The notes beneath the pieces are model-generated. The model did no database searches, was not told where the DNA came from, and was given only the letters and a program-made list of their open reading frames with translations. A program made the translations under genes and the position numbers. DNA of 64,000 nt from an uncultured Coriobacteriia bacterium (GTDB taxonomy: Bacteria; Actinomycetota; Coriobacteriia; Anaerosomatales; PALSA-660): contig CAVSCJ010000005.1 of assembly GCA_963726435.1 (NCBI GenBank), positions 81,452 to 145,451 on the forward strand, in the 5' to 3' direction. Positions 40,098 through 51,309 of this stretch are shown here, piece after piece. The stretch's first letter is position 1, and every line of letters begins with the position of its first letter.

Positions 40098-40256
40098 AGA
40101 GATCCCCTTCGAGGTGGCCTGAAGACGATGATGAGTGAACGGAGCTTCTTGGGGACAAGACCACACAGGAAACGCACGGCACTTCGCGCGCGTCCAGTGC
40201 CTGACCACACACTAGACTGTTGTCTACCCCGATGGTCCGAGAGAGCGGCTGCCCAC

Positions 40257-41720
40257 ATGACCGAAGAGACCCCCCACGTTCGCGCGACCTCCGAGAACCC
40301 TGAGAACATCGGCGACCAGGACCGCCTCACCATGGAGGCGGACACGGTTCTGCCACCCGCCGTGCTCGTAAGGCGCGGGTGGGTGGCGAGCACGTTCGAG
40401 TCCTTCCACTACCGGGACTTCACGCTGTTCTGGTCGGGCGCGCTCGTGAGCAACGTCGGCACGTGGATGCAGAACGCGGCGCTCGCCATCGTCGTCTGGT
40501 CGTTCCAGCCCGCGCAGGCGTCGCTCAACACGGGCATCGTCCAAGGCATCGCCGGTCTGCCGGTCCTGTTCCTCGCGATCCCCGCGGGCGCCGTCGCCGA
40601 CCGGGTCGACCGGCGCAGGCTGCTCATCTGGATCCAGGTCGTACTGCTCCTCCAGGCGGCTGCCATGGGCGTCCTCTACGACGCCAACGTTCTCAGTTCC
40701 AGGCAACCCGTCCTCTCGCTCGTGATCGTAGCGACACTCGGTCTCCTAGGCGGGGTATTCGTGGCCTTCCAGGGCCCCGCGTTCCAGTCGATCCTGCCCG
40801 ACCTCGTCCCGCGCGCGTCGCTCATGAACGGCATCGCGCTCAACTCGGCGCAACTGCAGTCCTCGCGGATGCTCGGGCCCGCGATAGTCGCGGCCATGGT
40901 GCTCGCCGGCGCGGGAATGGGGCTGGTCTTCTACATCAACGCGCTGAGCTTCCTGTTCGTGATCGCCGCGCTGCTCGCGATCCGGCCGCGCGCGGAGTTC
41001 CGCGCCGGCCGCGGTGCCGAAGCGGCTGACAACCCCGCGGAGACGCCGGGTCCCGGGGCGCGTGGCACGGCCGGAGTGGAGGCGGCGGAGGTCGTGAGCG
41101 CCTGGAAGACACTGATGGCCGGCGTCGCATACGCGCGCGAGAACAGCGCCATCGGCGTGCTGATCCTGACCACGGCGCTGCTCGTCTTCCTGGGCTTCCC
41201 GTACGTGATCATCCTCACCGCTGTCATCCAGACACGGTTCGCAGGCGCCGACGTCGCGCGGCTCTACGGGATCGTCTACACCTTCAACGGCATGGGCGCG
41301 CTCATCGGAGCGCTCGGCATCGCGGGCCTGCCGGCCACGATCAAGCGCAACCGCGTCATACCGCTGGCGCTTCTGGCCTTCTCGGCGCTGATCATCGCGT
41401 TCTCGCTCGCTCCAACACTCCTGGTGATGATCGTCTGCACGACGCTGGCCGGCGCCGCGTACATGGCGACCAGCTCGCTGGTCATGACGTCGATCCAAGC
41501 AGCCGTCCCGGGCCATCTTCGAGGTCGCGTCATGGCGCTCTTCATGATGTCCTTCATGGGCGTCATGCCGCTCTCCGCGTTCGCCTTCGGCCCGCTGGGC
41601 CAGGCGATCGGGCCGGACACGGCGGTGCTCGCCGGCGGCGTGCTGCTCCTGGCGTGGGCGGCGCTCCTAGCGCTGCGGCCGTCGTGGCTGCAGGCGATCT
41701 CGCCGGTGCCGAAGGCGTGA
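40257..41720 (+). CDS. MFS transporter (MFS_3/EntS-like).
   Basis: FHYRDFTLFWSGALVSNVGTWMQNAA, ADRVDRRRLL, 12 or more hydrophobic helices. The start is ATG 40257 or 40332. Confidence 0.85.
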   Translation: MTEETPHVRATSENPENIGDQDRLTMEADTVLPPAVLVRRGWVASTFESFHYRDFTLFWSGALVSNVGTWMQNAALAIVVWSFQPAQASLNTGIVQGIAGLPVLFLAIPAGAVADRVDRRRLLIWIQVVLLLQAAAMGVLYDANVLSSRQPVLSLVIVATLGLLGGVFVAFQGPAFQSILPDLVPRASLMNGIALNSAQLQSSRMLGPAIVAAMVLAGAGMGLVFYINALSFLFVIAALLAIRPRAEFRAGRGAEAADNPAETPGPGARGTAGVEAAEVVSAWKTLMAGVAYARENSAIGVLILTTALLVFLGFPYVIILTAVIQTRFAGADVARLYGIVYTFNGMGALIGALGIAGLPATIKRNRVIPLALLAFSALIIAFSLAPTLLVMIVCTTLAGAAYMATSSLVMTSIQAAVPGHLRGRVMALFMMSFMGVMPLSAFAFGPLGQAIGPDTAVLAGGVLLLAWAALLALRPSWLQAISPVPKA

Positions 41721-41754
41721 AGAGACTCGGCGCCGGAGACGCTGTCCGCGCCTG

Positions 41755-43296
41755 CTACAAGTCTCGCAGCGTGTCGAGGTAGGTGCGGTATTCGGGGTCG
41801 CGCATGAACTCCCGGATGCGGCGCCGGCCCTCGGCCAGGAAGCTCGTGGGCGCGAACTTGTACTGCACGTGCAGCCATGCCCACGACGCCGCGCGCTCCC
41901 GAAGAGGCATCCGTGCGAGCTCGGCGAGCTGCGCTTCGCCGAGGCGCCTGAATCGCCCGAGTGCGCCTCGCACCGCGGCCGCGACGATCCGAGGGAGCGA
42001 GTAGAAGCGCCGGTACGCGCGTTCCACGTGCCCCTGCATCTGAGCCGCTGTCATGTTCTGGGGACGTATCGCGACGTGCATCCCGTCGAAGAAGCGAAGC
42101 CCGTCGAGGGTCTTGAACAAGACCGCCCCCACCGACTCGTGCTCGGCGGTGCGCTTCGTCCCGGGAAGCGGCGTCTCGAACAGGTACTGAAGAGAGCTGA
42201 CGCAACGTCTCGCGAACTCGCCGTCGTGGCGGATCACTTCTGCAGTGTCCTCGACGAACGCGATGAACATCCCGTGGACGAGCAGGCCCTGTCTCCGCAT
42301 CGCGCGCAGAGCGCGGGCCGTCCTCGTCGAGTCCGCCTTCTTATGGATCCGTGCGAGGGCTTCGTCGCTCGCGGATTCCACCCCGACGCACACGACGGTC
42401 ACCGCGGCAGCGCGCTTCAGCAGCCTGAGGAACTCCTTGTCGATGCGGCCGTCCCCGGCGAAGACCGAGTCGGCGCGCAGTTGCGTAACCAAGATCCGTG
42501 CGAAGCCGTGCTGAGCGACCGCTCTGAGGAAGTCCTTGAACGCGTGCTTGTCGGCCGCCGCGTTGTCGTCGATGAGGAACGCCGTCCCGAACCCCTGGGC
42601 CTGGGCCTCGAGGAGTTCGCCCAGCGCTTGTTCATCACTCCGTACCGTGTAGCGCGGCCAGATCTGGCAGACCTCGCAGAAGTCGCAGCGCTGAGGACAA
42701 CCCCGCGCCCTCCACACCGCTGCGACGTCGGCCCGGCCGTAGTCGTGGACGAGCGTGCGGTCCACGCGCGGCAGCGCGTCGAGTTCGGCGCGGGTCAGCT
42801 GCTCGGACGGCGGACCCTGCAACGTCGTCGCCCCGGTCCGCCACACGAGACCGGGAATGTCGGCGAAACGCTCGTCGCCCCGTCCGCACACGACGGCGAG
42901 GAACCGCGGGAGCGTCCGCTCGGCTTCCCCACGCAAGACGAAGTCCGCGCCGATGTCCAAGCTGCGCTCGGGCGCACACGTGGGCTCGGGGCCGCCGAGC
43001 ACGATCGTTGCCTGCGGATTTAGGGCGCGAGCGTGTTCGAGCAGGTCGCGCGTGCGCGGGAGCGTGCATGTGATCGCCGAGAAGCCGACGACGTCACAAG
43101 AGGCGACGTAGTCCCAGTCGGTCGAGTCCTTGCCGCTGACGTCCTCGATGAAGGCGCGCACGTCGTAGCCGGCCTCGCGCACTACGGTAGCCAGTATCGG
43201 CGCGCCGCGCCCCATGGCGACGCCCGTGTAGATGTTCAGCCCCGGCGAGCCGGCCTCTATGATGGCCACCCGGCGCCCGCCTTGCCCGATACCCAT
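41755..43296 (-). CDS. B12-binding-domain radical SAM protein.
   Basis: N-terminal Rossmann-like B12-binding region (VVGFSAITCTL...IVLGGPEPT), followed by RGCPQRCDFC (CxxxCxxC). Confidence 0.85.
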   Translation of the reverse strand: MGIGQGGRRVAIIEAGSPGLNIYTGVAMGRGAPILATVVREAGYDVRAFIEDVSGKDSTDWDYVASCDVVGFSAITCTLPRTRDLLEHARALNPQATIVLGGPEPTCAPERSLDIGADFVLRGEAERTLPRFLAVVCGRGDERFADIPGLVWRTGATTLQGPPSEQLTRAELDALPRVDRTLVHDYGRADVAAVWRARGCPQRCDFCEVCQIWPRYTVRSDEQALGELLEAQAQGFGTAFLIDDNAAADKHAFKDFLRAVAQHGFARILVTQLRADSVFAGDGRIDKEFLRLLKRAAAVTVVCVGVESASDEALARIHKKADSTRTARALRAMRRQGLLVHGMFIAFVEDTAEVIRHDGEFARRCVSSLQYLFETPLPGTKRTAEHESVGAVLFKTLDGLRFFDGMHVAIRPQNMTAAQMQGHVERAYRRFYSLPRIVAAAVRGALGRFRRLGEAQLAELARMPLRERAASWAWLHVQYKFAPTSFLAEGRRRIREFMRDPEYRTYLDTLRDL

Positions 43297-43438
43297 GGGT
43301 CACCCGTCTCATCGTTGGTCGCACTCTGCGGATAGCGGGAATGTACCCAACGCTCGAGTCGGCGCGCCCGCTCTTCGACGCGACCCTCCCGAGATGTGCG
43401 TGCCCGCGCGCGATCCCATAGACAGGAGGGCTGGCGAG

Positions 43439-44446
43439 GTGCCCCATCTCCTCGAACCGCTGACGGACTGCAAGCTCGTCCTCAAGAACCGACTCGTGAT
43501 GCCGCCGATGGCGACGTCGAAGGCCGACCCCGACGGGAGCATGAGCGGCGCACTGCTCGCGTACTACGACGAGAAGTCGCGCGGCGGCGCCATCGGGCTG
43601 ATCATCACCGAGCACTGCTACATCACCAGGCAGGGCATGAACCGGGTCGGGCAACCCTCGATCGCGGATGACGGCACGATCGAAGGGTGGAGGGAGCTGA
43701 CCTCGATCCTCCACGGCAACGGCTCGAAGGCGGTCATGCAGATCAACCACGCGGGGGCCGCCAGCAGCGCCGCGGCCACGGGGCTCGAGGTGGTCGGCCC
43801 GTCGAACGTGCCTCTCCCCTTGGGCCGGCCCGAGACACCCCGAGGACTCACGCACCGTGAGATCGACATCTTGGTCGGGCAGTTCGCCGCAGCGGCACGC
43901 CGAGTGAAGGAGGCCGGGTTCGACGGCGTGGAGATCCACGGCGCCCACGGATACTTGCTGAACCAGTTCTTCTCGCCGCTGACCAACAAGCGGACCGACG
44001 AATACGGAGGCGTCGTGTTCGGCAGGATCCGCCTGCATCTGGATGTGATCGCTGCAGTGCGCGAGGCGGTCGGTGAGGAGTTCCCCGTCCTGTTGCGACT
44101 CGGCGCCCGCGACTACATGGAGGGCGGCACCCGCATCGAGGACAGCACGATCGCGGCGGTCGAGTTCGAACGGGCCGGGGTCGATATCCTGGACGTCACC
44201 GGCGGCCTGACGGGCTACATCAGGCCGGGACACGACGAGCCGGGGTACTTCGCCGAGTTGTCCGAGGCCATCAAGGGCGTGGTGTCGATCCCGGTGATCC
44301 TCACCGGAGGCGTCACGGAACCGCAACACGCCGAGAGGCTCCTTGCCGAGGGCAAGGCCGACCTCATCGGCGTCGGCAGGGCGATCCTGGGCGATTCCTC
44401 GTGGGCCCAGCGGGCCGTCAGCTCACTCCAAGGGGGACCGGGCTAG
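43439..44446 (+). CDS. NADH:flavin oxidoreductase, Old Yellow Enzyme family.
   Basis: NRLVMPPMAT, MQINHAG, GFDGVEIHGAHGYLLNQFFSPLTNKRTDEYGG, ADLIGVGRA. GTG 43439 follows AGGAGGG. Confidence 0.88.
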   Translation: MPHLLEPLTDCKLVLKNRLVMPPMATSKADPDGSMSGALLAYYDEKSRGGAIGLIITEHCYITRQGMNRVGQPSIADDGTIEGWRELTSILHGNGSKAVMQINHAGAASSAAATGLEVVGPSNVPLPLGRPETPRGLTHREIDILVGQFAAAARRVKEAGFDGVEIHGAHGYLLNQFFSPLTNKRTDEYGGVVFGRIRLHLDVIAAVREAVGEEFPVLLRLGARDYMEGGTRIEDSTIAAVEFERAGVDILDVTGGLTGYIRPGHDEPGYFAELSEAIKGVVSIPVILTGGVTEPQHAERLLAEGKADLIGVGRAILGDSSWAQRAVSSLQGGPG

Positions 44447-44733
44447 GCGCCCGATCTCGCGAGCGGGCCGATACCGGCGAACACGTGCAGGGCCCGATCG
44501 CCCTCGATCGTCGGCGGCCCGCAGACTTCCACCGGACCGGACCTGCCGTCGGCGATCTCGATCCGCATCTGCTCGGCGGGCTCGATGATCAGACCGAGCG
44601 GAAGCGCGGCGTGAGCGTGCCACCCCGCACCGTCCGGCGAGCCTCCGGGAGCGTCGGTGAAGTCCAACAGGACGGTGACACCGGACACAACGACCGTCTC
44701 GCCGTCGAAGATCGTGGCTTCGACCTCTTCCAT
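44443..44733 (-). CDS. Hypothetical 96-aa protein.
   Basis: ATG 44733 follows GGAAGGAAGGGA. No recognisable motifs. Confidence 0.45.
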   Translation of the reverse strand: MEEVEATIFDGETVVVSGVTVLLDFTDAPGGSPDGAGWHAHAALPLGLIIEPAEQMRIEIADGRSGPVEVCGPPTIEGDRALHVFAGIGPLARSGA

Positions 44734-44960
44734 CAGCGGATCCCTTCCTTCCCAGGCAGGTCGACGTATATGTGAGTACGTACCCGGGAGGGAGGCGCCG
44801 GACCCCACGGGCCGAGTGCCGACGCTACAGAAGGGGAAGAGGAGGCCCCGATCCGGCATGAGGAGGTCCTCATCCCTGGGGGAATGCTGAATGTTTGCCG
44901 AACGGCACTCCGGCTCGGCCGCGGCACGGGGCTTGCTCGGCCTCCCACCGTGAAGACCCA

Positions 44961-45665
44961 GTGAAAGTCCATCGCATCCAGGGCATCGCGTTCTCCAGCT
45001 ACCTCATCGAGACACCCGCAGCGCTCTTCCTAGTCGACAGCGGCTTCCGCTGGTTCGAGAGTCTCATCACGCGCAAGGTGCGCTCGATCGGGCGCAGCCT
45101 CGGCGACCTCAGGCTCGCCGTCCTCACGCACCCGCACCTCGACCACGTCGGCTCGATCCCGGCGCTCCTGAAGCGGGCGGACTTCGAGATCGCGGCGCAC
45201 CCCGCATCTTGCGAAGTGCTCTCGACCGGCGGCCGCGACTTCTCCCCCCCGACCAGGAACTGGACCCGCGCGGTCGGATGGCTGGCCACGAACGCGATGC
45301 CGCTGCTTCATCTGCCCGCCATCGCGCCGACGTTCGCGCTGAACGACGGCCGGCGTCTTGACGACTTCGGCCTTGCCGGCGCTCTCCACTTCACGCCCGG
45401 GCACAGCAAGTGGTGCATCTCGCTGCTGCTGGACGACGGGACGGCGTTCGCGGGCGACCTTCTGATAGGGCCCGGCCACATGACCCGCGACGTGGCGCCC
45501 CCTGCGATGGCGGCGGACCCGGAAGGGGCGTTCCGCAGCATCCGGAAGCTGCTCGACGCCGGCGCCACGCGGTTCATGCCGGCCCACGGGCGGGCATTCC
45601 GCGCGGGCGACGTGAGGGAGATGCTCGCCGATCTCGACACGGGTGGATCGGGGCCGGTGACCTAG
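44961..45665 (+). CDS. MBL-fold metallo-hydrolase.
   Basis: LVDSG, LTHPHLDHVGS, TPGHS. GTG 44961 is the most plausible start. Confidence 0.8.
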   Translation: MKVHRIQGIAFSSYLIETPAALFLVDSGFRWFESLITRKVRSIGRSLGDLRLAVLTHPHLDHVGSIPALLKRADFEIAAHPASCEVLSTGGRDFSPPTRNWTRAVGWLATNAMPLLHLPAIAPTFALNDGRRLDDFGLAGALHFTPGHSKWCISLLLDDGTAFAGDLLIGPGHMTRDVAPPAMAADPEGAFRSIRKLLDAGATRFMPAHGRAFRAGDVREMLADLDTGGSGPVT

Positions 45666-45685
45666 CTCGACTCCGGGGTCGCTGC

Positions 45686-45901
45686 CTAGTGCCGGGTCTC
45701 GTCCCACTCCTTCACGGCCATTCCCACGTCCCACCAGTAGGTCTTCTTCTCGGCGGCCTTGCGCGCCTTCGGCGACAGGCTCACTTTGACCATCTCGCTG
45801 ACCTTCTCCGCCGCGGCAAGCCGGGCGAGGACGCGGTCCAAGGCGGCCTCGGCCGCAGTGTCGGCGATGCAGGACGACTTCAGGATCTCCTCGTCGGTCA
45901 T
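45686..45901 (-). CDS. Hypothetical 71-aa protein.
   Basis: ATG 45901. Lys/Ala-rich helical sequence ending WWDVGMAVKEWDETRH. No recognisable family. Confidence 0.4.
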   Translation of the reverse strand: MTDEEILKSSCIADTAAEAALDRVLARLAAAEKVSEMVKVSLSPKARKAAEKKTYWWDVGMAVKEWDETRH

Positions 45902-46140
45902 CGGATCCGCTCCATCCGTCGTGTCCGGAATCCTACGAGCCCCTGACGACAAGTAGATTACCCGCACGCGCCGCGAGTAGCAGGCCGGAAGGTGCCCGTC
46001 AGCCTGCGGCATGCCTCCTGCGCGCGGCGGGCCGGCGCGACGAGAGCGACCACGAGCCGCTGGCCTCATCGCCACTACGAGCGGCGCGCCCGGCCAGGCG
46101 GGGAATAGTCGATAGGAGCAAGAGCGCGAAGGGACCTGCC

Positions 46141-47112
46141 GTGGGTTGTGTCGAGACAGAAGAGACTTTCGATTCGCGGATCTCGGAACTGGACGAGTCG
46201 TCTCGGCGCGGGTTGGATCTGCGCGCCCTGACCGTCAGCGTGACGCTACGATGCAACCAGGTGTGCTCGCACTGCCATGTGAGCGCCTCGCCTTCACGAG
46301 GCGAGATGATGGGCGCGGACACGATGGCGCGAGTCGTTGAAGTCGCGTCGGACCTCGGTCCCGAGGTCGTCGACATCACCGGTGGGGCGCCCGAGCTCAA
46401 TCCCCTCCTGCCCGACCTCCTCCGCGCGCTTCGCGCGCACGGACACCGCGTGCAGCTCCGCACGAACCTGACGGTACTCGCGGACCCCGAACATGCAGCG
46501 CTGGCTGGCCTCTACGCTTCTTCCGGGATCGAGCTGCTCGCGTCGCTGCCGTGCTACACCGTCCGCAACGTCGACCTGGGCCGTGGCCCGGGAGTGCACG
46601 ACCTGAGCGTGCGGATGCTGCTCGCGCTCAACGCGCTGGGGTACGGCACGGATGGCGGACCCCGGCTCGACCTCATCTACAACACCGTCGGTACGACCCT
46701 CCCCGAGCCGCAGGCCATGCTGGAGGAGCTGTTCCGCGAAGAGCTGGCCGCGAGGTTCGGCATCGTCTTCACCCACCTGCTCACGATGACGAACATGCCG
46801 GTAGGGCGCTTCCGCGACCGTCTGATCGCTGAGGGAGGATACGATCGCTACCTTCGCGCACTGCGAGAGGCCTTCAATCCGGAGGTCGTCCCCTTCCTGC
46901 AGTGCAGGCACCAGGTCGAGGTCGGATGGGACGGGCGGCTCTACGACTGCGACTTCAACCTCGGGCGGGGGATACCCGTGTCGCACGATGCGCCCCCGAC
47001 GGTGTGGGAGTTCGACGCCGAGGCCCTGGCGACGCGGCGGGTGGTCCACTCCGTCCACTGCTTCGGCTGCACGGCGGGCGCGGGATCGAGTTGAAACGGC
47101 GCGCTGACATGA
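46141..47112 (+). CDS. arsS: Radical SAM/Cys-rich-domain protein of the ArsS (rSAM/selenodomain) type. The in-frame TGA at 47092-47094 is read as probable selenocysteine.
   Basis: TLRCNQVCSHCHV (CxxxCxxC), DITGGAPELNP, ASLPCY, MTNMPVGRF, LYDCDFN. The C-terminus is HCFGCTAGAGSS-TGA-NGALT-TGA, and the family motif is GSS[C/U]GG. GTG 46141 follows GAAGGGA. Confidence 0.8.
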
Positions 47113-47126
47113 CCGGTCCGGTCAGC
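47103..47126. other. Palindromic stem-loop GCTGAC-N12-GTCAGC (inner alternative TGACC-GGTCC-GGTCA) between the convergent arsS and arsM-like genes. Candidate SECIS for arsS and/or a bidirectional terminator.
   Basis: Read directly from the sequence. It starts 9 nt after the arsS TGA and spans the second TGA. Confidence 0.4.
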
Positions 47127-47137
47127 CGCACCTGCCG

Positions 47138-47866
47138 CTACGAGGGCTTCGCCGCCAGGAACGACGCCCAGTAGGTGTAGTCGTTCCGGGGGTTGGGGCG
47201 CTCGTCGAGTTGCTCCGCGACGAACCCCACCGACTCGAGCATCGCCTTCAACTCCGCCGCCGGCAGAGCGCCCGAGATTCAAAGCGACCAGCTGTCCGGG
47301 TCAGCCGACACCTCGGCCGCCTTCTCGGGCTTCAGGACGGCGTCGCACAGTGCGAGCCGCCCGCCGGCGCGGAGCACGCGGTGAGCCTCGGCGAGGAGTT
47401 CCGGCTTCCTCGGCGACAGGTTGAGGCAACCGTTCGACTGGACCGCGTCGAACGCGCCGTCGTCGAAGGGCAGGCGCTCCGAGGCGTCAGCCAGCAGGAA
47501 GGTCACCGGCGCGGAAGGCGCCATCGCCGCCGCCTCGCGTGCCCGCCCGATCATCTCGGGAGTGATGTCCACGCCCACGACTTCACCCTCCGGTCCCACG
47601 GCAGCCGCCGCCACCAGAGCGTCGAGGCCGCCGCCGCAGCCGATGTCCAGTACTCGCTCGCCCGCGGTGAGCCGCGCGAAGGAGGCCGGGTTCCCGACCC
47701 CCACGAACGACTCGAGCGAAACCACCGGGATGCCGTCGAGAGTATCGCCGTACCCCAGGTACTCCGCGCAGCGGTTGCCGGTCCACACGCCGAAACCAGC
47801 GTCGATGCCGAGCGCCACCCGGGAGAAGCGCTTGAGGACCGAATCGGTTATCTCGTCCGCCTGCAT
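47138..47866 (-). CDS. arsM: ArsM/UbiE-type SAM-dependent methyltransferase. The in-frame TGA at 47279-47281 is read as probable selenocysteine.
   Basis: VLDIGCGGGLD, VVGVDITPEMI, FDAVQSNGCLNLSPRK, RVLRAGGRLAL. The ORF stops at TGA after DSWSL, but the frame stays open through ISGALPAAELKAMLESVGF...AAKPS to TAG 47138. ATG 47866 follows GAAGGGGAG. Confidence 0.72.
47251..47269 (-). other. Candidate SECIS-like hairpin G-CUCUGCC-GGC-GGCGGAG-U, 10 nt downstream of the arsM-like UGA.
   Basis: Stem of 7-8 bp including one G-U pair, folded by eye. No covariation or predictor support. Confidence 0.3.
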
Positions 47867-47876
47867 GGTCTCCCCT

Positions 47877-49208
47877 TCACCGTGGATGCCGCCAGCCGTC
47901 GAGGACCGCCGGGTCGATGCCGAACCGATACCCCGCGATGATCGCGAGGTACGCCGCGGACGCACGCACGACGCCTCCTTCGTTCCAGCGGCGGCTCGAA
48001 GTGAGCGCGCGCTGGGGCAGGATCCGCACGGAACCGAGCCGCATGATCCTGCGCGAGAGCTCCCAGTCTTCCATCACCGGCTGCGTGGGGTAGCCGCCCA
48101 GGTCCTCGAAGGTGCGCTTGGTCATGAAGAGCGCCTGGTCGCCGTAGGGGACTCGGAAGACGGCCATCCTCATCCGGCCGGCGAGGGTGAAGAGGCGGGC
48201 CAGCGGCGTGTCGTACGTCCCCCAGCTGAAGGCACCCCCGCTGGTCCCTTCGGCGGACAGCGCTCGGCACACCAGTGCGGCCGACTTGGCGGGCAGCGTG
48301 GTATCGGCGTGCAGGAACACGAGCGCATCGCAAGTCGCCGCCCTCGCCCCCGCGTTCATCTGCCCGGCACGGCCCCGCGGGGCGTCGATCACTCGGGCGC
48401 CGGCGCTCCTGGCTGCGTGCGGCGTGCCATCCTGGCTTCCTCCGTCGACCACTATCACCTCGCGAGCGCCTCCGCTGAACGCGCTGCTCACGGCGGCGCC
48501 CACGCGATCCGCCTCATCGAGCGCGGGGATGACCACCGAGACCGAGGCAGGGGGAGTCCGCTCAAGACGGCGCTCCGCCTCCCATAGGGGGAGGTCCTCC
48601 GGGCGGTCCACGTCGGCCAAGCGGTCGGCGAAGCCGACGGTCAGACCAGCCTGCCCGGCACGGCGCAGAGTGTCGCGGAAGACCGTGTCCGCACCCCACT
48701 CGATCCCCTCGAACAGTACCGGGAGTCCTCGATGCGCAGCGCGCGCGCTGACGCCGAGAAGCCAGTAGCCGCCGTCCTCGGCGGGACCGATCACCACGTC
48801 GTGCGTCGCGAGTTGTCGCAGCGCCGCGCGCACGTGTGTCGCGCGCGCGGCCGGGCAGTCCGAGCCCACCACGACCGCCGAAGGAGCGCCGGACCGGAAG
48901 GAAGACGACATCGCCGAGCGCAGCCGGTCGCCCAGGTCGCCCTCCGGCTGCGGCGCGAAACGCGGCCAGTCGCCCAGCCACGCCGCGACTTCGCCGGGCG
49001 ACCCGCCATCGACGTGAACCTCGATATCAGCGTCGCCGGAGGCCTGCAGCGGCCTCATCCGCGAGACGCAGTGGGCCGCGAGCTCGCGGTGCAGCGCCGC
49101 CGCGCCCTCCGCGCCCAGCCGCGGGATCAGGCGGCTCTTCACCTCGCCGGACCTGGGGAACCGGGCCACGACAGCGACGACGGGCCGCTTGCGGGATGCC
49201 GCCGTCAC
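47877..49208 (-). CDS. Fusion of rSAM/selenodomain-associated transferase 1 (DUF2064/TIGR04282-like) and transferase 2 (GT2, TIGR04283-like).
   Basis: N-terminal half: VVARFPRSGEVKSRL, VVGSDCP, IGPAEDGGYWLLG. C-terminal half: VSVVIPALDEA, VIVVDGGSQDGT, RGRAGQMNAGA, FLHADTTLP, YGDQALF, MEDWELSRR, TSSRRW. GTG 49208 overlaps the upstream stop as GTGA. Confidence 0.85.
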   Translation of the reverse strand: MTAASRKRPVVAVVARFPRSGEVKSRLIPRLGAEGAAALHRELAAHCVSRMRPLQASGDADIEVHVDGGSPGEVAAWLGDWPRFAPQPEGDLGDRLRSAMSSSFRSGAPSAVVVGSDCPAARATHVRAALRQLATHDVVIGPAEDGGYWLLGVSARAAHRGLPVLFEGIEWGADTVFRDTLRRAGQAGLTVGFADRLADVDRPEDLPLWEAERRLERTPPASVSVVIPALDEADRVGAAVSSAFSGGAREVIVVDGGSQDGTPHAARSAGARVIDAPRGRAGQMNAGARAATCDALVFLHADTTLPAKSAALVCRALSAEGTSGGAFSWGTYDTPLARLFTLAGRMRMAVFRVPYGDQALFMTKRTFEDLGGYPTQPVMEDWELSRRIMRLGSVRILPQRALTSSRRWNEGGVVRASAAYLAIIAGYRFGIDPAVLDGWRHPR

Positions 49209-50638
49209 AGCTCGGCCTTGAAGTCGTTGTGTCCCACGAGTATCCGGAGCGCGCCTCTCAGCGCGGGGTTGTCCCGCAAGTGCTCGGCGTACTCGGCGTC
49301 CGCCGGTCGCTTCACGGCGTCGGCGAAGGTCGGATAGGCGTGCAACACCGATGAGAGCGAGGAGAGCGGCATGTCGTTGTGGAGCAGGATCGCGGCCTCG
49401 TTGATCAGCTCGCCCGCGCGCGGCCCCAGGATGTGAGCTCCGAGGAGGTGCCCGCGATCGTCGAGGACGTACTTCGCGACGCCATCCGTCGCGGCCTCGG
49501 TGCGGGCGCGGTCCTGAGTCGAGAAGTCGTACCGGCGAACCCGGACCGAGTCACCGTACGCCTCGTGCGCCTGCGCCTCCGTCATGCCGAGATGCGCCAG
49601 CTCGGGCTCCGTGAACAGCACCCACGCGATGTCCCTCCAGGCGACCTTGGGTCCGACCGGCAACAGGGCGTTGGTGGCGGCGGCGATCCCCTCGCGCTCG
49701 GCCGTGTGCGTGAAGCGATAGGGGCCGGTGACGTCACCCGCGGCGAAGATGTGGCGCGCTGTCGTCCGCATGTGAGCGTCGGTGACTATGCCGCGTTCTC
49801 CGACCTCCACGCCGGCGGCCTCCAGCCCTTCAGGGACGACCGGCATGCGGCCGGCCGCCACGAGCAACCTTTCTGCCTCGAACTCCCTGCCGCCTCCGAC
49901 CAGAACGACGCCGCCGTCACGCGGTTCGACGCGCTCGAGAGGAACGCCCGTCACGATCTCGACTCCCTGCGACGCAAGCACCGCCCTGAGCCGTTCGACA
50001 AGCTCCGGCTCCTCCGCGCGCAAGAGCTCGGAGCGCACCAGCATGGTGACCCGGGTCCCCAGTCTCGTGAACGCGGAGGCCATCTCGACCGCCACCGGCC
50101 CGCCGCCGAGGATGGCCAGCGACCGCGGCAGCACATCGATGTCCCACAGGGTGTCAGAGGTGAGCGCCGCGGTCTCGTCCAGCCCCGGGACCCGAGGGAG
50201 GAGCGGCCGGGAGCCGGTGGCGATAACAAAGCGGCGTCCCACCAACGTACGACCGCCGACCTCGACCACGCTCGGCTCCACGAAACGGGCCTCGCCCGCA
50301 AAGACCTCGAGGCCGTAGCCCGCGAGGACTTCCGCTGAGTCGTGCTGGCCGATCTGCTCCCTCACCGAGCGCACGTGAGCCATCACGCCCGACGTGTCGA
50401 TCCTGAAGGGCCCGTCCGGCGCAAGGCCGAACCGTTCCAGCTGATCCGGGACCGAGGCGGCACGGGCCGCCGCGAGCAGGGTCTTGCTGGGCACGCAGCC
50501 GCGCCACGTGCACTCCCCGCCGAGCTGTCCGCGCTCGACTATGGCGACGCTCGCGCCGAGACCTAGACCCACGAGCGCCGCTGTCCGACCGGCAGAGCCC
50601 GAGCCGAGCACCACTAGATCGAATCGCGCCTCTTCCAC
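49205..50638 (-). CDS. Pyridine nucleotide-disulfide oxidoreductase (dihydrolipoamide dehydrogenase / mercuric-reductase-like class I).
   Basis: DLVVLGSGSAG, redox-active GGECTWRGCVPSK, ILGGGPVAVE, AAGDV, C-terminal HAYPTF. Confidence 0.88.
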   Translation of the reverse strand: MEEARFDLVVLGSGSAGRTAALVGLGLGASVAIVERGQLGGECTWRGCVPSKTLLAAARAASVPDQLERFGLAPDGPFRIDTSGVMAHVRSVREQIGQHDSAEVLAGYGLEVFAGEARFVEPSVVEVGGRTLVGRRFVIATGSRPLLPRVPGLDETAALTSDTLWDIDVLPRSLAILGGGPVAVEMASAFTRLGTRVTMLVRSELLRAEEPELVERLRAVLASQGVEIVTGVPLERVEPRDGGVVLVGGGREFEAERLLVAAGRMPVVPEGLEAAGVEVGERGIVTDAHMRTTARHIFAAGDVTGPYRFTHTAEREGIAAATNALLPVGPKVAWRDIAWVLFTEPELAHLGMTEAQAHEAYGDSVRVRRYDFSTQDRARTEAATDGVAKYVLDDRGHLLGAHILGPRAGELINEAAILLHNDMPLSSLSSVLHAYPTFADAVKRPADAEYAEHLRDNPALRGALRILVGHNDFKAEL

Positions 50639-50834: not shown

Positions 50835-51309
50835 ATGCAGATCGAGTACCTCGCGGATCATCCGCTGCTCGTCCCCGAGCTCGCGCGCCTGCACTTCGAG
50901 CAGTGGGGGTACCTCCGGCCCGACGAGACCCTTGAGGACCGGACTCGACGGCTCGAGGCGAGTTGCGGGCGGGGCGGCGTGCCGAGCGTCGTCGTGGCGC
51001 TCGAGGACGGCGTCGCTCCGCGGCTCCGCGATGCTCGTCGCGAGCGACATGGCCGAGACGCGGCCGGGACTCACCCCGTGGCTCGCCGGCCTGTACGTCG
51101 TCGAGGCGTACCGCGGGCACGGATACGGCTCTGCGCTGGTCGGACGGATCGAGTCAGACGCGTCGGCGCTCGGAGTCGAACGGCTGTACCTGTACACGCC
51201 GGACGCAGAGGACTTCTACGCCGCGCTCGGGTGGACGGTCTATGAGAGATGCGAGCACCTCGGCCAACAGGTCGCGGTGATGTCGAAGGCGCTCGGGCAG
51301 ACCGCCTAG
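50835..51309 (+). pseudogene. GNAT family N-acetyltransferase with one frame break at about 51010.
   Basis: MQIEYLADHPLLVPELARLHFEQWGY...VVVALEDG is in ORF 50484..51245(+). LRGSAMLVASDM...LYVVEAYRGHGYGSALV...LYLYTPDAEDFYAALGW is in ORF 50932..51309(+). Confidence 0.75.

Follow-up and report, generated by a model that had tools for sequence, protein, structure and literature searches.

A candidate arsenosugar cassette with two probable selenoproteins

What would be made by a gene cluster that brings together an ArsS-type enzyme of the radical S-adenosylmethionine (SAM) group, an ArsM-like methyltransferase, a fused transferase and a flavoprotein disulfide reductase, and do these four genes belong together? 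The question is raised by positions 46141–50638 of a 64,000-nucleotide stretch (contig CAVSCJ010000005.1), here called the window, from an uncultured Coriobacteriia bacterium whose metagenome-assembled genome (MAG) of 2.0 Mb consists of seven contigs and is 92% complete. The reading we favour, with a probability of about 0.65, is that the locus is a compact four-gene cassette for organoarsenical (arsenosugar-type) biosynthesis in an anaerobic, selenocysteine (Sec)-using member of the Coriobacteriia. In its favour, ArsS and both halves of the fused transferase (TIGR04282 and TIGR04283) score above the curated cut-offs of their NCBIfam models. The gene identities proposed in an initial annotation of the locus were supported.

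ArsS passes the equivalog cut-off of TIGR04167 (349.6 against 300 bits). Its radical SAM motif CX3CX2C corresponds to C38/C42/C45 (CNQVCSHC, residues 38–45), and its C-terminal DUF3641 domain (PF12345, 153.8 bits) ends in ...CFGCTAGAGSSUNGALT, in keeping with the family feature of a Cys-rich C-terminal domain with Cys or Sec in an ...AGxGSS[C/U] tail. The reading frame, whose start codon is approximate, passes through the TGA at 47092–47094 and stops five codons later at 47112. Cyanobacterial ArsS has been shown to adenosylate dimethylarsenite, giving 5'-deoxy-5'-dimethylarsinoyl-adenosine (DDMAA) (PMC13598754; PMC12159101), in a redox-neutral radical reaction (PMC13598754), the methylated arsenite being provided by ArsM (PMC13598754; 10.1101/2022.09.23.509062; PMC12159101). 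Judging from its family membership, the window enzyme would likewise adenosylate dimethylarsenite.

The methyltransferase, encoded by the sole ArsM-like gene of the genome, finds its best PDB match in the arsenite methyltransferase 5evj (E 1.3e-21), while in NCBIfam it scores best, though in each case below cut-off, with NF008823 and with Sec-containing ArsM fusion families. Its frame passes the TGA at 47279–47281 and ends at a TAG at 47138. In the alignment with 5evj, U196 falls on the C-terminal conserved Cys of ArsM (GECLAGAL vs SLUISGAL) and the first As(III)-binding Cys is shifted by one residue (SNGC vs SNC). From this homology we infer that the Sec-containing methyltransferase would fill the ArsM role.

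Probable selenocysteine recoding

Two putative Sec enzymes had been proposed at the locus, and the genome is equipped for Sec incorporation: selA, selB and selD are clustered on contig 1 with tRNA-Sec close by (G000 contig C1, 180561–190102; tRNA-Sec at 180561–180657), and selD carries one in-frame TGA, SelD being therefore itself a selenoprotein. Opposite the TGA of arsS, 10 homologues have a TGC/TGT Cys codon and 6 have TGA. Both TGA codons, together with the protein sequence downstream of them, are kept in the orthologous cassettes of three other genomes (G008, G071 and G109).

Candidate hairpins after both UGA codons were obtained with RNAalifold from four orthologues. That of the methyltransferase begins 12 nt 3' of the UGA and keeps 8/8 pairs in 4/4 sequences, with one compensatory and three one-sided changes; that of arsS has 10 pairs around the core UGACCGG-UCC-CCGGUCA, with an invariant upper stem and one compensatory pair in the lower stem. 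This support comes only from the four-way comparison, and coding constraint may also explain the conservation; single-sequence folds after each UGA did not surpass those of shuffled sequences (z 0.91 and 0.37). Taken together, the UGA at a Cys position, the downstream hairpin and the Sec machinery are the hallmarks of bacterial selenoproteins, and both enzymes can be regarded as such on comparative grounds, as originally suggested. The convergent arsS and methyltransferase genes are separated by a 25-nt spacer, most of which is taken up by a palindrome at 47103–47126, within the arsS hairpin. On the plus transcript this palindrome is the candidate Sec insertion sequence (SECIS) of arsS, and it could serve as a bidirectional terminator as well.

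Architecture and distribution of the transferase fusion

According to the initial annotation the two transferases form one 443-aa polypeptide, and indeed a single uninterrupted frame encodes an N-terminal half above the TIGR04282 cut-off (177.1 against 134, residues 11–206) and a C-terminal half above that of TIGR04283 (206.1 against 182, residues 223–436), with Pfam reporting DUF2064 and Glycos_transf_2. No variation was seen among 40 homologues in the acidic GT2 motifs D255-G-G-S-x-D260 and H300-A-D302. The AlphaFold model (pLDDT 94.1, pTM 0.91) consists of two GT-A-type domains. With Foldseek, the transferase 1 (T1) half matched 3cgx, a structural-genomics DUF2064 protein (E 6.5e-20), and also the CofC/FbiD guanylyltransferases 7p97 and 6bwg; structure matches of the transferase 2 (T2) half were WrtF, GpgS (glucosyl-3-phosphoglycerate synthase) and PcManGT (a polyprenyl-phosphate-type mannosyltransferase).

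The same annotation had presented the fusion as a special departure from the separate neighbours usually described. The survey of domain architectures that it recommended found DUF2064+GT2 fusions to be common, so this specialness was not borne out. A protein search with the fusion gave 2605 matches at E <= 1e-10. With a single exception, the best 120 combine PF09837 with PF00535 at a query coverage of at least 91%, and in all the fusion occurs in more than 120 protein clusters. Many matches bear the JGI label "rSAM/selenodomain-associated transferase 2/transferase 1", and the entries named as fusions by NCBI come from Coriobacteriia, Anaerosomatales and Actinomycetia MAGs. Among 40 relatives, the fusion is a single full-length match in at least 11 and is found in pieces or at a contig end in 3 more; clearly separate T1 and T2 genes were found in none of the 40. 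A scan with one genome per species returned 303 relatives, the best 80 of which underlie the locus counts given below. Nearly all of these 80 cover the whole fusion protein, and they include Desulfobacterales (Desulfobacterota), Planctomycetota, Kiritimatiellae, Verrucomicrobiota, Cyanobacteria (e.g. Leptolyngbya sp. FACHB-8), Nitrospirales and others. Longer forms also occur, either GT2+DUF2064+GT2 (793 aa) or with a GT87-like membrane domain at the front (1159 aa). The DUF2064+GT2 fusion is the usual form in the order, widespread elsewhere and already annotated, and is a routine feature rather than a discovery. NCBIfam now names both TIGR04282 and TIGR04283 'arsenosugar biosynthesis glycosyltransferase'; a literature search found no paper on DUF2064 and none uniting arsenosugar, glycosyltransferase and ArsM.

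That the fusion is an artefact of assembly or annotation, in which loss of a stop or an indel has run two genes together, has a probability close to nil. The MAG-type assembly and an orthologue that shows the gene in three frames (G071) would speak for it. However, no overlooked stop or indel was seen: the frame is uninterrupted with both domains complete, independent assemblies yield orthologues of the same 443 aa, the architecture recurs at the 80 loci in other phyla, and the pTM implies a defined two-domain packing. In G071, a genome 52% complete, the orthologue (L036, 10053–11374) matches as three pieces in different frames while the three other cassette genes are intact, and the split transferase is either a frameshifted gene or an assembly error. 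A metagenomic protein of 579 aa (P0099), in which PF12345, the C-terminal domain of ArsS, precedes DUF2064 and GT2, may be a gene call that starts in the ArsS tail, passes the UGA and continues into the fusion, or else a genuine fusion of three parts.

A disulfide reductase recurrently linked to the fusion

The reductase carries the redox motif GGECTWRGCVPSK (Cys codons at 50495–50512). The CxxxxC ascribed earlier to this flavoprotein is present as C43 and C48, the only cysteines in the protein, together with a His-containing HAYPT motif and a C-terminal extension of ~35 aa. Its best PDB matches are mercuric reductases. An identity as MerA was rejected, because with only two cysteines there is no C-terminal pair for Hg(II) hand-off and the score against TIGR02053 is below cut-off (364.2 against 454.45).

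The earlier suggestion that the reductase belongs to the pathway gained support from tblastn over the 80 loci of other lineages, where ArsS was found at 25, DedA/VTT at 23 and a reductase homologue at 21, followed by a GT87-like GT-C transferase (12), DUF547 (9), an ArsM-like methyltransferase (8) and AhpC (6). VTT accompanies 15 of the 21 linked reductases. Every reductase match of the first pass shared the strand of the fusion and lay on its upstream side, several of them directly abutting it. For a genome that, like this one, encodes just two such proteins in 2 Mb, the expected frequency of a chance neighbour within 9 kb is ~2%, to be set against 21/80 loci that are not independent but come from several phyla. 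Planctomycete examples of cluster-linked reductases pass NF004991 (817.5 and 805.1 bits against 620), and one from Delongbacteria has NF004991 as its best match at 343.7 bits, below cut-off. A basic C-terminal extension after an HPYPT motif is common to the linked reductases, and the redox site reads GGECTWRGC in the window clade vs GGDCLNVGC in planctomycete, Kiritimatiellae and Brocadiaceae members. By these comparisons, the flavin disulfide reductase is a real recurrent partner of the ArsS/T1T2 pathway.

It could also be a passenger, a general thiol-redox or metal-stress enzyme that shares the transcript but does nothing particular for the pathway. Among proteins of solved structure its nearest relatives are generic (MerA, Lpd, GR), relatives such as genomes G015 and G054 have homologues of 51–52% identity unlinked to T1T2, and G064 has a 74%-identical orthologue (L037, 8729–10144) with ArsS, fusion and methyltransferase all absent within ~8.7 kb. 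We nevertheless consider such a passenger quite improbable, in view of the 4-nt start/stop overlap with the fusion, of the position kept in all four cassettes, of the same-strand upstream linkage in several phyla and of the common C-terminal extension. The further proposal, that an NF004991-like reductase is an overlooked core component of ArsS/T1T2 pathways across phyla and that the four-gene cassette is a minimal complete pathway, is advanced tentatively, as a possibility with somewhat less than even chances.

Extended clusters were observed in Planctomycetota and Delongbacteria (L113, L117, L093 and L108), comprising an ArsM-like methyltransferase, a PHO4 transporter and ArsS, then VTT/DedA and DUF547 (separate or fused), an NF004991 reductase, rhodanese and AhpC or CMD, and finally a GT87-like GT-C followed by GT2+DUF2064+GT2. 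In L117 these last four domains (GT87-like GT-C, GT2, DUF2064, GT2) form one reading frame of 1159 aa. Such larger clusters add ArsM-like methyltransferases, and the PHO4 phosphate/arsenate-type transporter in one locus. The genome studied here has one VTT gene, ~50 kb away, and no match to DUF547; a literature search found nothing tying DUF547 to arsenic.

Conservation of the cassette in the order

A comparison of arsS neighbourhoods, proposed as a check in the initial annotation, showed that the four-gene module recurs. Exactly this arrangement of a reductase, the fusion, a Sec-methyltransferase and a convergent arsS is shared by 4/121 genomes of the order, the three others being G008, of the same genus, and G071 and G109, of other families, at 68–82% amino-acid identity. 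Most relatives of the order have arsS on the strand of the fusion and immediately upstream of it, with neither the reductase nor the methyltransferase nearby. Cassette identities are 76–80% for G008, 71–82% for G071 and 68–72% for G109, and those of SelA to the same genomes 85%, 63% and 68%, respectively. The G071 cassette is closer than expected because its 71–82% compares with 63% for SelA; this excess hints at lateral transfer of the four-gene module, on an identity baseline that is thin, consisting of two marker genes (SelA and a 625-aa translational GTPase). The homologue of this GTPase in G015 (G015:C19:54042-55895) has two in-frame TAG codons.

Six genes flanking the cassette in the window (40128–46075 and 50932–51309) gave no match, as queries, at the G008, G071 and G109 loci; the metallo-beta-lactamase, the 129-aa ORF, the OYE reductase and the B12-radical SAM, MFS and GNAT genes are not conserved with the cassette. 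The cassette itself seems to travel as one unit in this order.

Gene layout

The four genes were retrieved from the window (G+C ~69%) by open reading frame (ORF) listing and a filter on G+C at third codon positions (GC3), which is 0.84–0.87 for each of the ORFs 49205–50638 (-), 47877–49208 (-) and 46141–47094 (+); the reductase, fusion and methyltransferase have the same coordinates in the initial annotation, which had also correctly described both minus-strand junctions and the convergence on arsS (Table 1). On the minus strand the order is reductase, fusion, methyltransferase, and the plus-strand arsS converges on the methyltransferase. The fusion–methyltransferase junction reads 'TGA aggggagacc ATG', with a Shine-Dalgarno-like AGGGGAG in the 10-nt gap. 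Read-through of the TGA stop of the fusion into the methyltransferase was considered and excluded, since the gap sets the two genes in different frames. Scanning of the locus for sigma-70 promoters gave no match, and for terminators matches at chance level only.

Table 1. Positions of the cassette genes and their elements within the window.
Feature	Position (nt)	Strand	Basis
arsS, radical SAM (seleno)protein	46141..47112	+	TIGR04167 349.6 bits > 300; PF04055 + PF12345
TGA read as selenocysteine U318 in ArsS	47092..47094	+	Cys/Sec alignment with homologues
Candidate SECIS hairpin after arsS UGA	47097..47128	+	RNAalifold, 4 orthologues
ArsM-like SAM methyltransferase, 242 aa, probable selenoprotein (U196)	47138..47866	-	best PDB match 5evj
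TGA read as selenocysteine U196 in methyltransferase	47279..47281	-	alignment to 5evj Cys
Candidate SECIS hairpin, 8 bp, after methyltransferase UGA	47251..47269	-	RNAalifold, 4 orthologues
Fused transferase, 443 aa	47877..49208	-	TIGR04282 + TIGR04283; DUF2064 + Glycos_transf_2
DUF2064/TIGR04282 N-terminal domain of fusion	about 48591-49178	-	
GT2/TIGR04283 C-terminal domain of fusion	about 47901-48542	-	
GTGA overlap, reductase stop / fusion start	49205..49208	-	reads 'GAG CTG TGA' over GTG
Class I pyridine-nucleotide disulfide oxidoreductase, 477 aa	49205..50638	-	PF07992 + PF02852

On the arsS-upstream side, the window holds a B12-binding radical SAM gene (41755–43296, -), an OYE-type flavin oxidoreductase (43232–44446, +) and a metallo-beta-lactamase-fold gene (44895–45665, +), with a 129-aa ORF without Pfam match (45686–46075) between the latter and arsS.

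Proposed pathway and arsenic context

In the pathway that we propose, the Sec-containing ArsM-like methyltransferase would, by homology, methylate As(III) to methylated trivalent arsenic, and ArsS, as a member of its family, would use the 5'-deoxyadenosyl radical to adenosylate dimethylarsenite to 5'-deoxy-5'-dimethylarsinoyl-adenosine. The steps after ArsS are those that we infer. The fused T1T2 would process the arseno-ribose, its CofC/FbiD-like T1 half possibly making a nucleotide-linked (phospho)intermediate and its GT2 half passing the sugar on to an acceptor, a scheme with which the joining of two successive steps in one protein would be consistent. Finally, as its conserved linkage suggests, the translationally coupled flavoprotein reductase may keep a thiol, selenol or arsenical reduced at the expense of NAD(P)H, for example by recycling an oxidised Cys/Sec pair of the methyltransferase or of ArsS, or by regenerating trivalent methylarsenicals.

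No ArsR-type HTH, Acr3, ArsB or ArsC was matched within the window, as previously stated. A probable arsenic resistance locus lies elsewhere (G000 contig C4, 98179–103204), where two ArsR-type HTH_5 genes (98179–98268 and 99275–99418) are ~3 kb from Acr3 (102215–103204; 380 bits, above 282.8); neither ArsB nor ArsC of either type was found in this 92%-complete genome.

Several observations weigh against an arsenosugar cassette. The methyltransferase falls below the ArsM cut-offs (172.1 against 263 for NF008823; 58.6 against 400 for the arsenosugar ArsM model NF038099), and its N-terminal Cys pair is incomplete, FWGCGNP of 5evj being FVGVGNP with Val for Cys and C33 the only Cys upstream. The reductase reaches 382.6 bits with its best NCBIfam match, NF004991 (cut-off 620), and has no VTT or DUF547 partner in the window cassette, in spite of the frequent company of DedA/VTT elsewhere. 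ArsS is not obviously in need of a dedicated reductase, because its reaction is redox-neutral. The genome carries its arsenic resistance genes (ArsR-type, Acr3) on a different contig. Lastly, the fusion stands without any other tested partner in the DNA covered at 34/80 loci (43 in a first, narrower pass), and T1T2 is therefore not strictly tied to ArsS.

The absence of ArsS from many T1T2 loci and of ars resistance genes from the window would also agree with a product other than an arsenical, for example a modified 5'-deoxy sugar, a seleno-sugar or a thio-sugar destined for a glycan or lipid of the cell envelope, in which case the ArsS-like enzyme and the methyltransferase would act on another nucleophile. 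Larger clusters moreover pair T1T2 with GT87-like GT-C and DedA/VTT proteins, a combination typical of lipid-linked sugar export, DedA proteins being proposed undecaprenyl-phosphate flippases (PMC10127716). GT2, DedA and GT-C together suggest, in those other phyla, a lipid-linked sugar exported across the membrane; the DedA and GT-C parts are missing from the window cassette. A non-arsenic product is nonetheless unlikely in our opinion, as ArsS exceeds an equivalog cut-off, the methyltransferase, whose Sec occupies the As-binding position, has arsenite methyltransferases as its best structural relatives, and ArsM-like genes recur in the larger clusters, one of which carries the PHO4-type transporter. 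Between arsenic and selenium, both of which had been considered, the evidence favours arsenic.

Significance and comparison with known systems

The locus is genuine but unexceptional, a form with four genes of a bacterial gene set that is already annotated as 'arsenosugar biosynthesis'. Specific to it are the compact, mobile-looking four-gene form, the two selenoproteins and a divergent reductase without DedA partner. The ArsS/TIGR04282/TIGR04283 set was already named by NCBI and the fused form by JGI, and the useful new point is the recurrent reductase link. We know of no enzymes assigned to arsenosugar steps after ArsS; to the candidate pathway, the comparative data add a flavoprotein reductase and, in other phyla, also DedA/VTT, DUF547 and a GT-C transferase. 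With only four genes, which are kept together as a unit, the cassette makes a small set for reconstitution, and if the reductase were a core component, reconstitution of the cassette would reveal late steps of bacterial arsenosugar synthesis.

An arsM-arsS arsenosugar pathway has reportedly been described in Synechocystis sp. PCC 6803, by Xue et al. in 2019 and Cheng et al. in 2021 (cited in 10.1101/2022.09.23.509062 and PMC12159101). In both systems an ArsM-type methyltransferase adjoins a TIGR04167 radical SAM enzyme, whereas in the window both enzymes are probable selenoproteins, the genes are convergent instead of co-transcribed, the methyltransferase is short (242 aa) and below the ArsM cut-offs, and the host is an anaerobic member of the Coriobacteriia, represented by a MAG, rather than a cyanobacterium. 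With the best NCBIfam matches of the methyltransferase, NF041537 (ArsM/AhpD), NF041536 (ArsM/DUF2284) and NF047649 (MTase/UXPK-star), it has in common an ArsM-like domain with selenocysteine; scoring 199, 172 and 182 bits, far below the cut-offs, the window protein is the methyltransferase domain only, without the AhpD, DUF2284 or UXPK tail. As for the 'rSAM/selenodomain-associated transferase 1 and 2' families TIGR04282 and TIGR04283, both halves of the fusion pass the cut-offs of models that were built as separate proteins (189 and 221 positions), whereas one polypeptide is found here and in many genomes. Compared with MerA, its nearest solved structure, the window reductase is without the C-terminal Cys pair. 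With the FAD-containing oxidoreductase subfamily NF004991 (PRK06370.1-3) it shares the class I disulfide reductase fold and the CxxxxC; the N-terminal ~30 residues of the model have no counterpart in it, and its redox site is GGECTWRGC in place of GGDCLNVGC, while true NF004991 members hold the same position in the planctomycete clusters.

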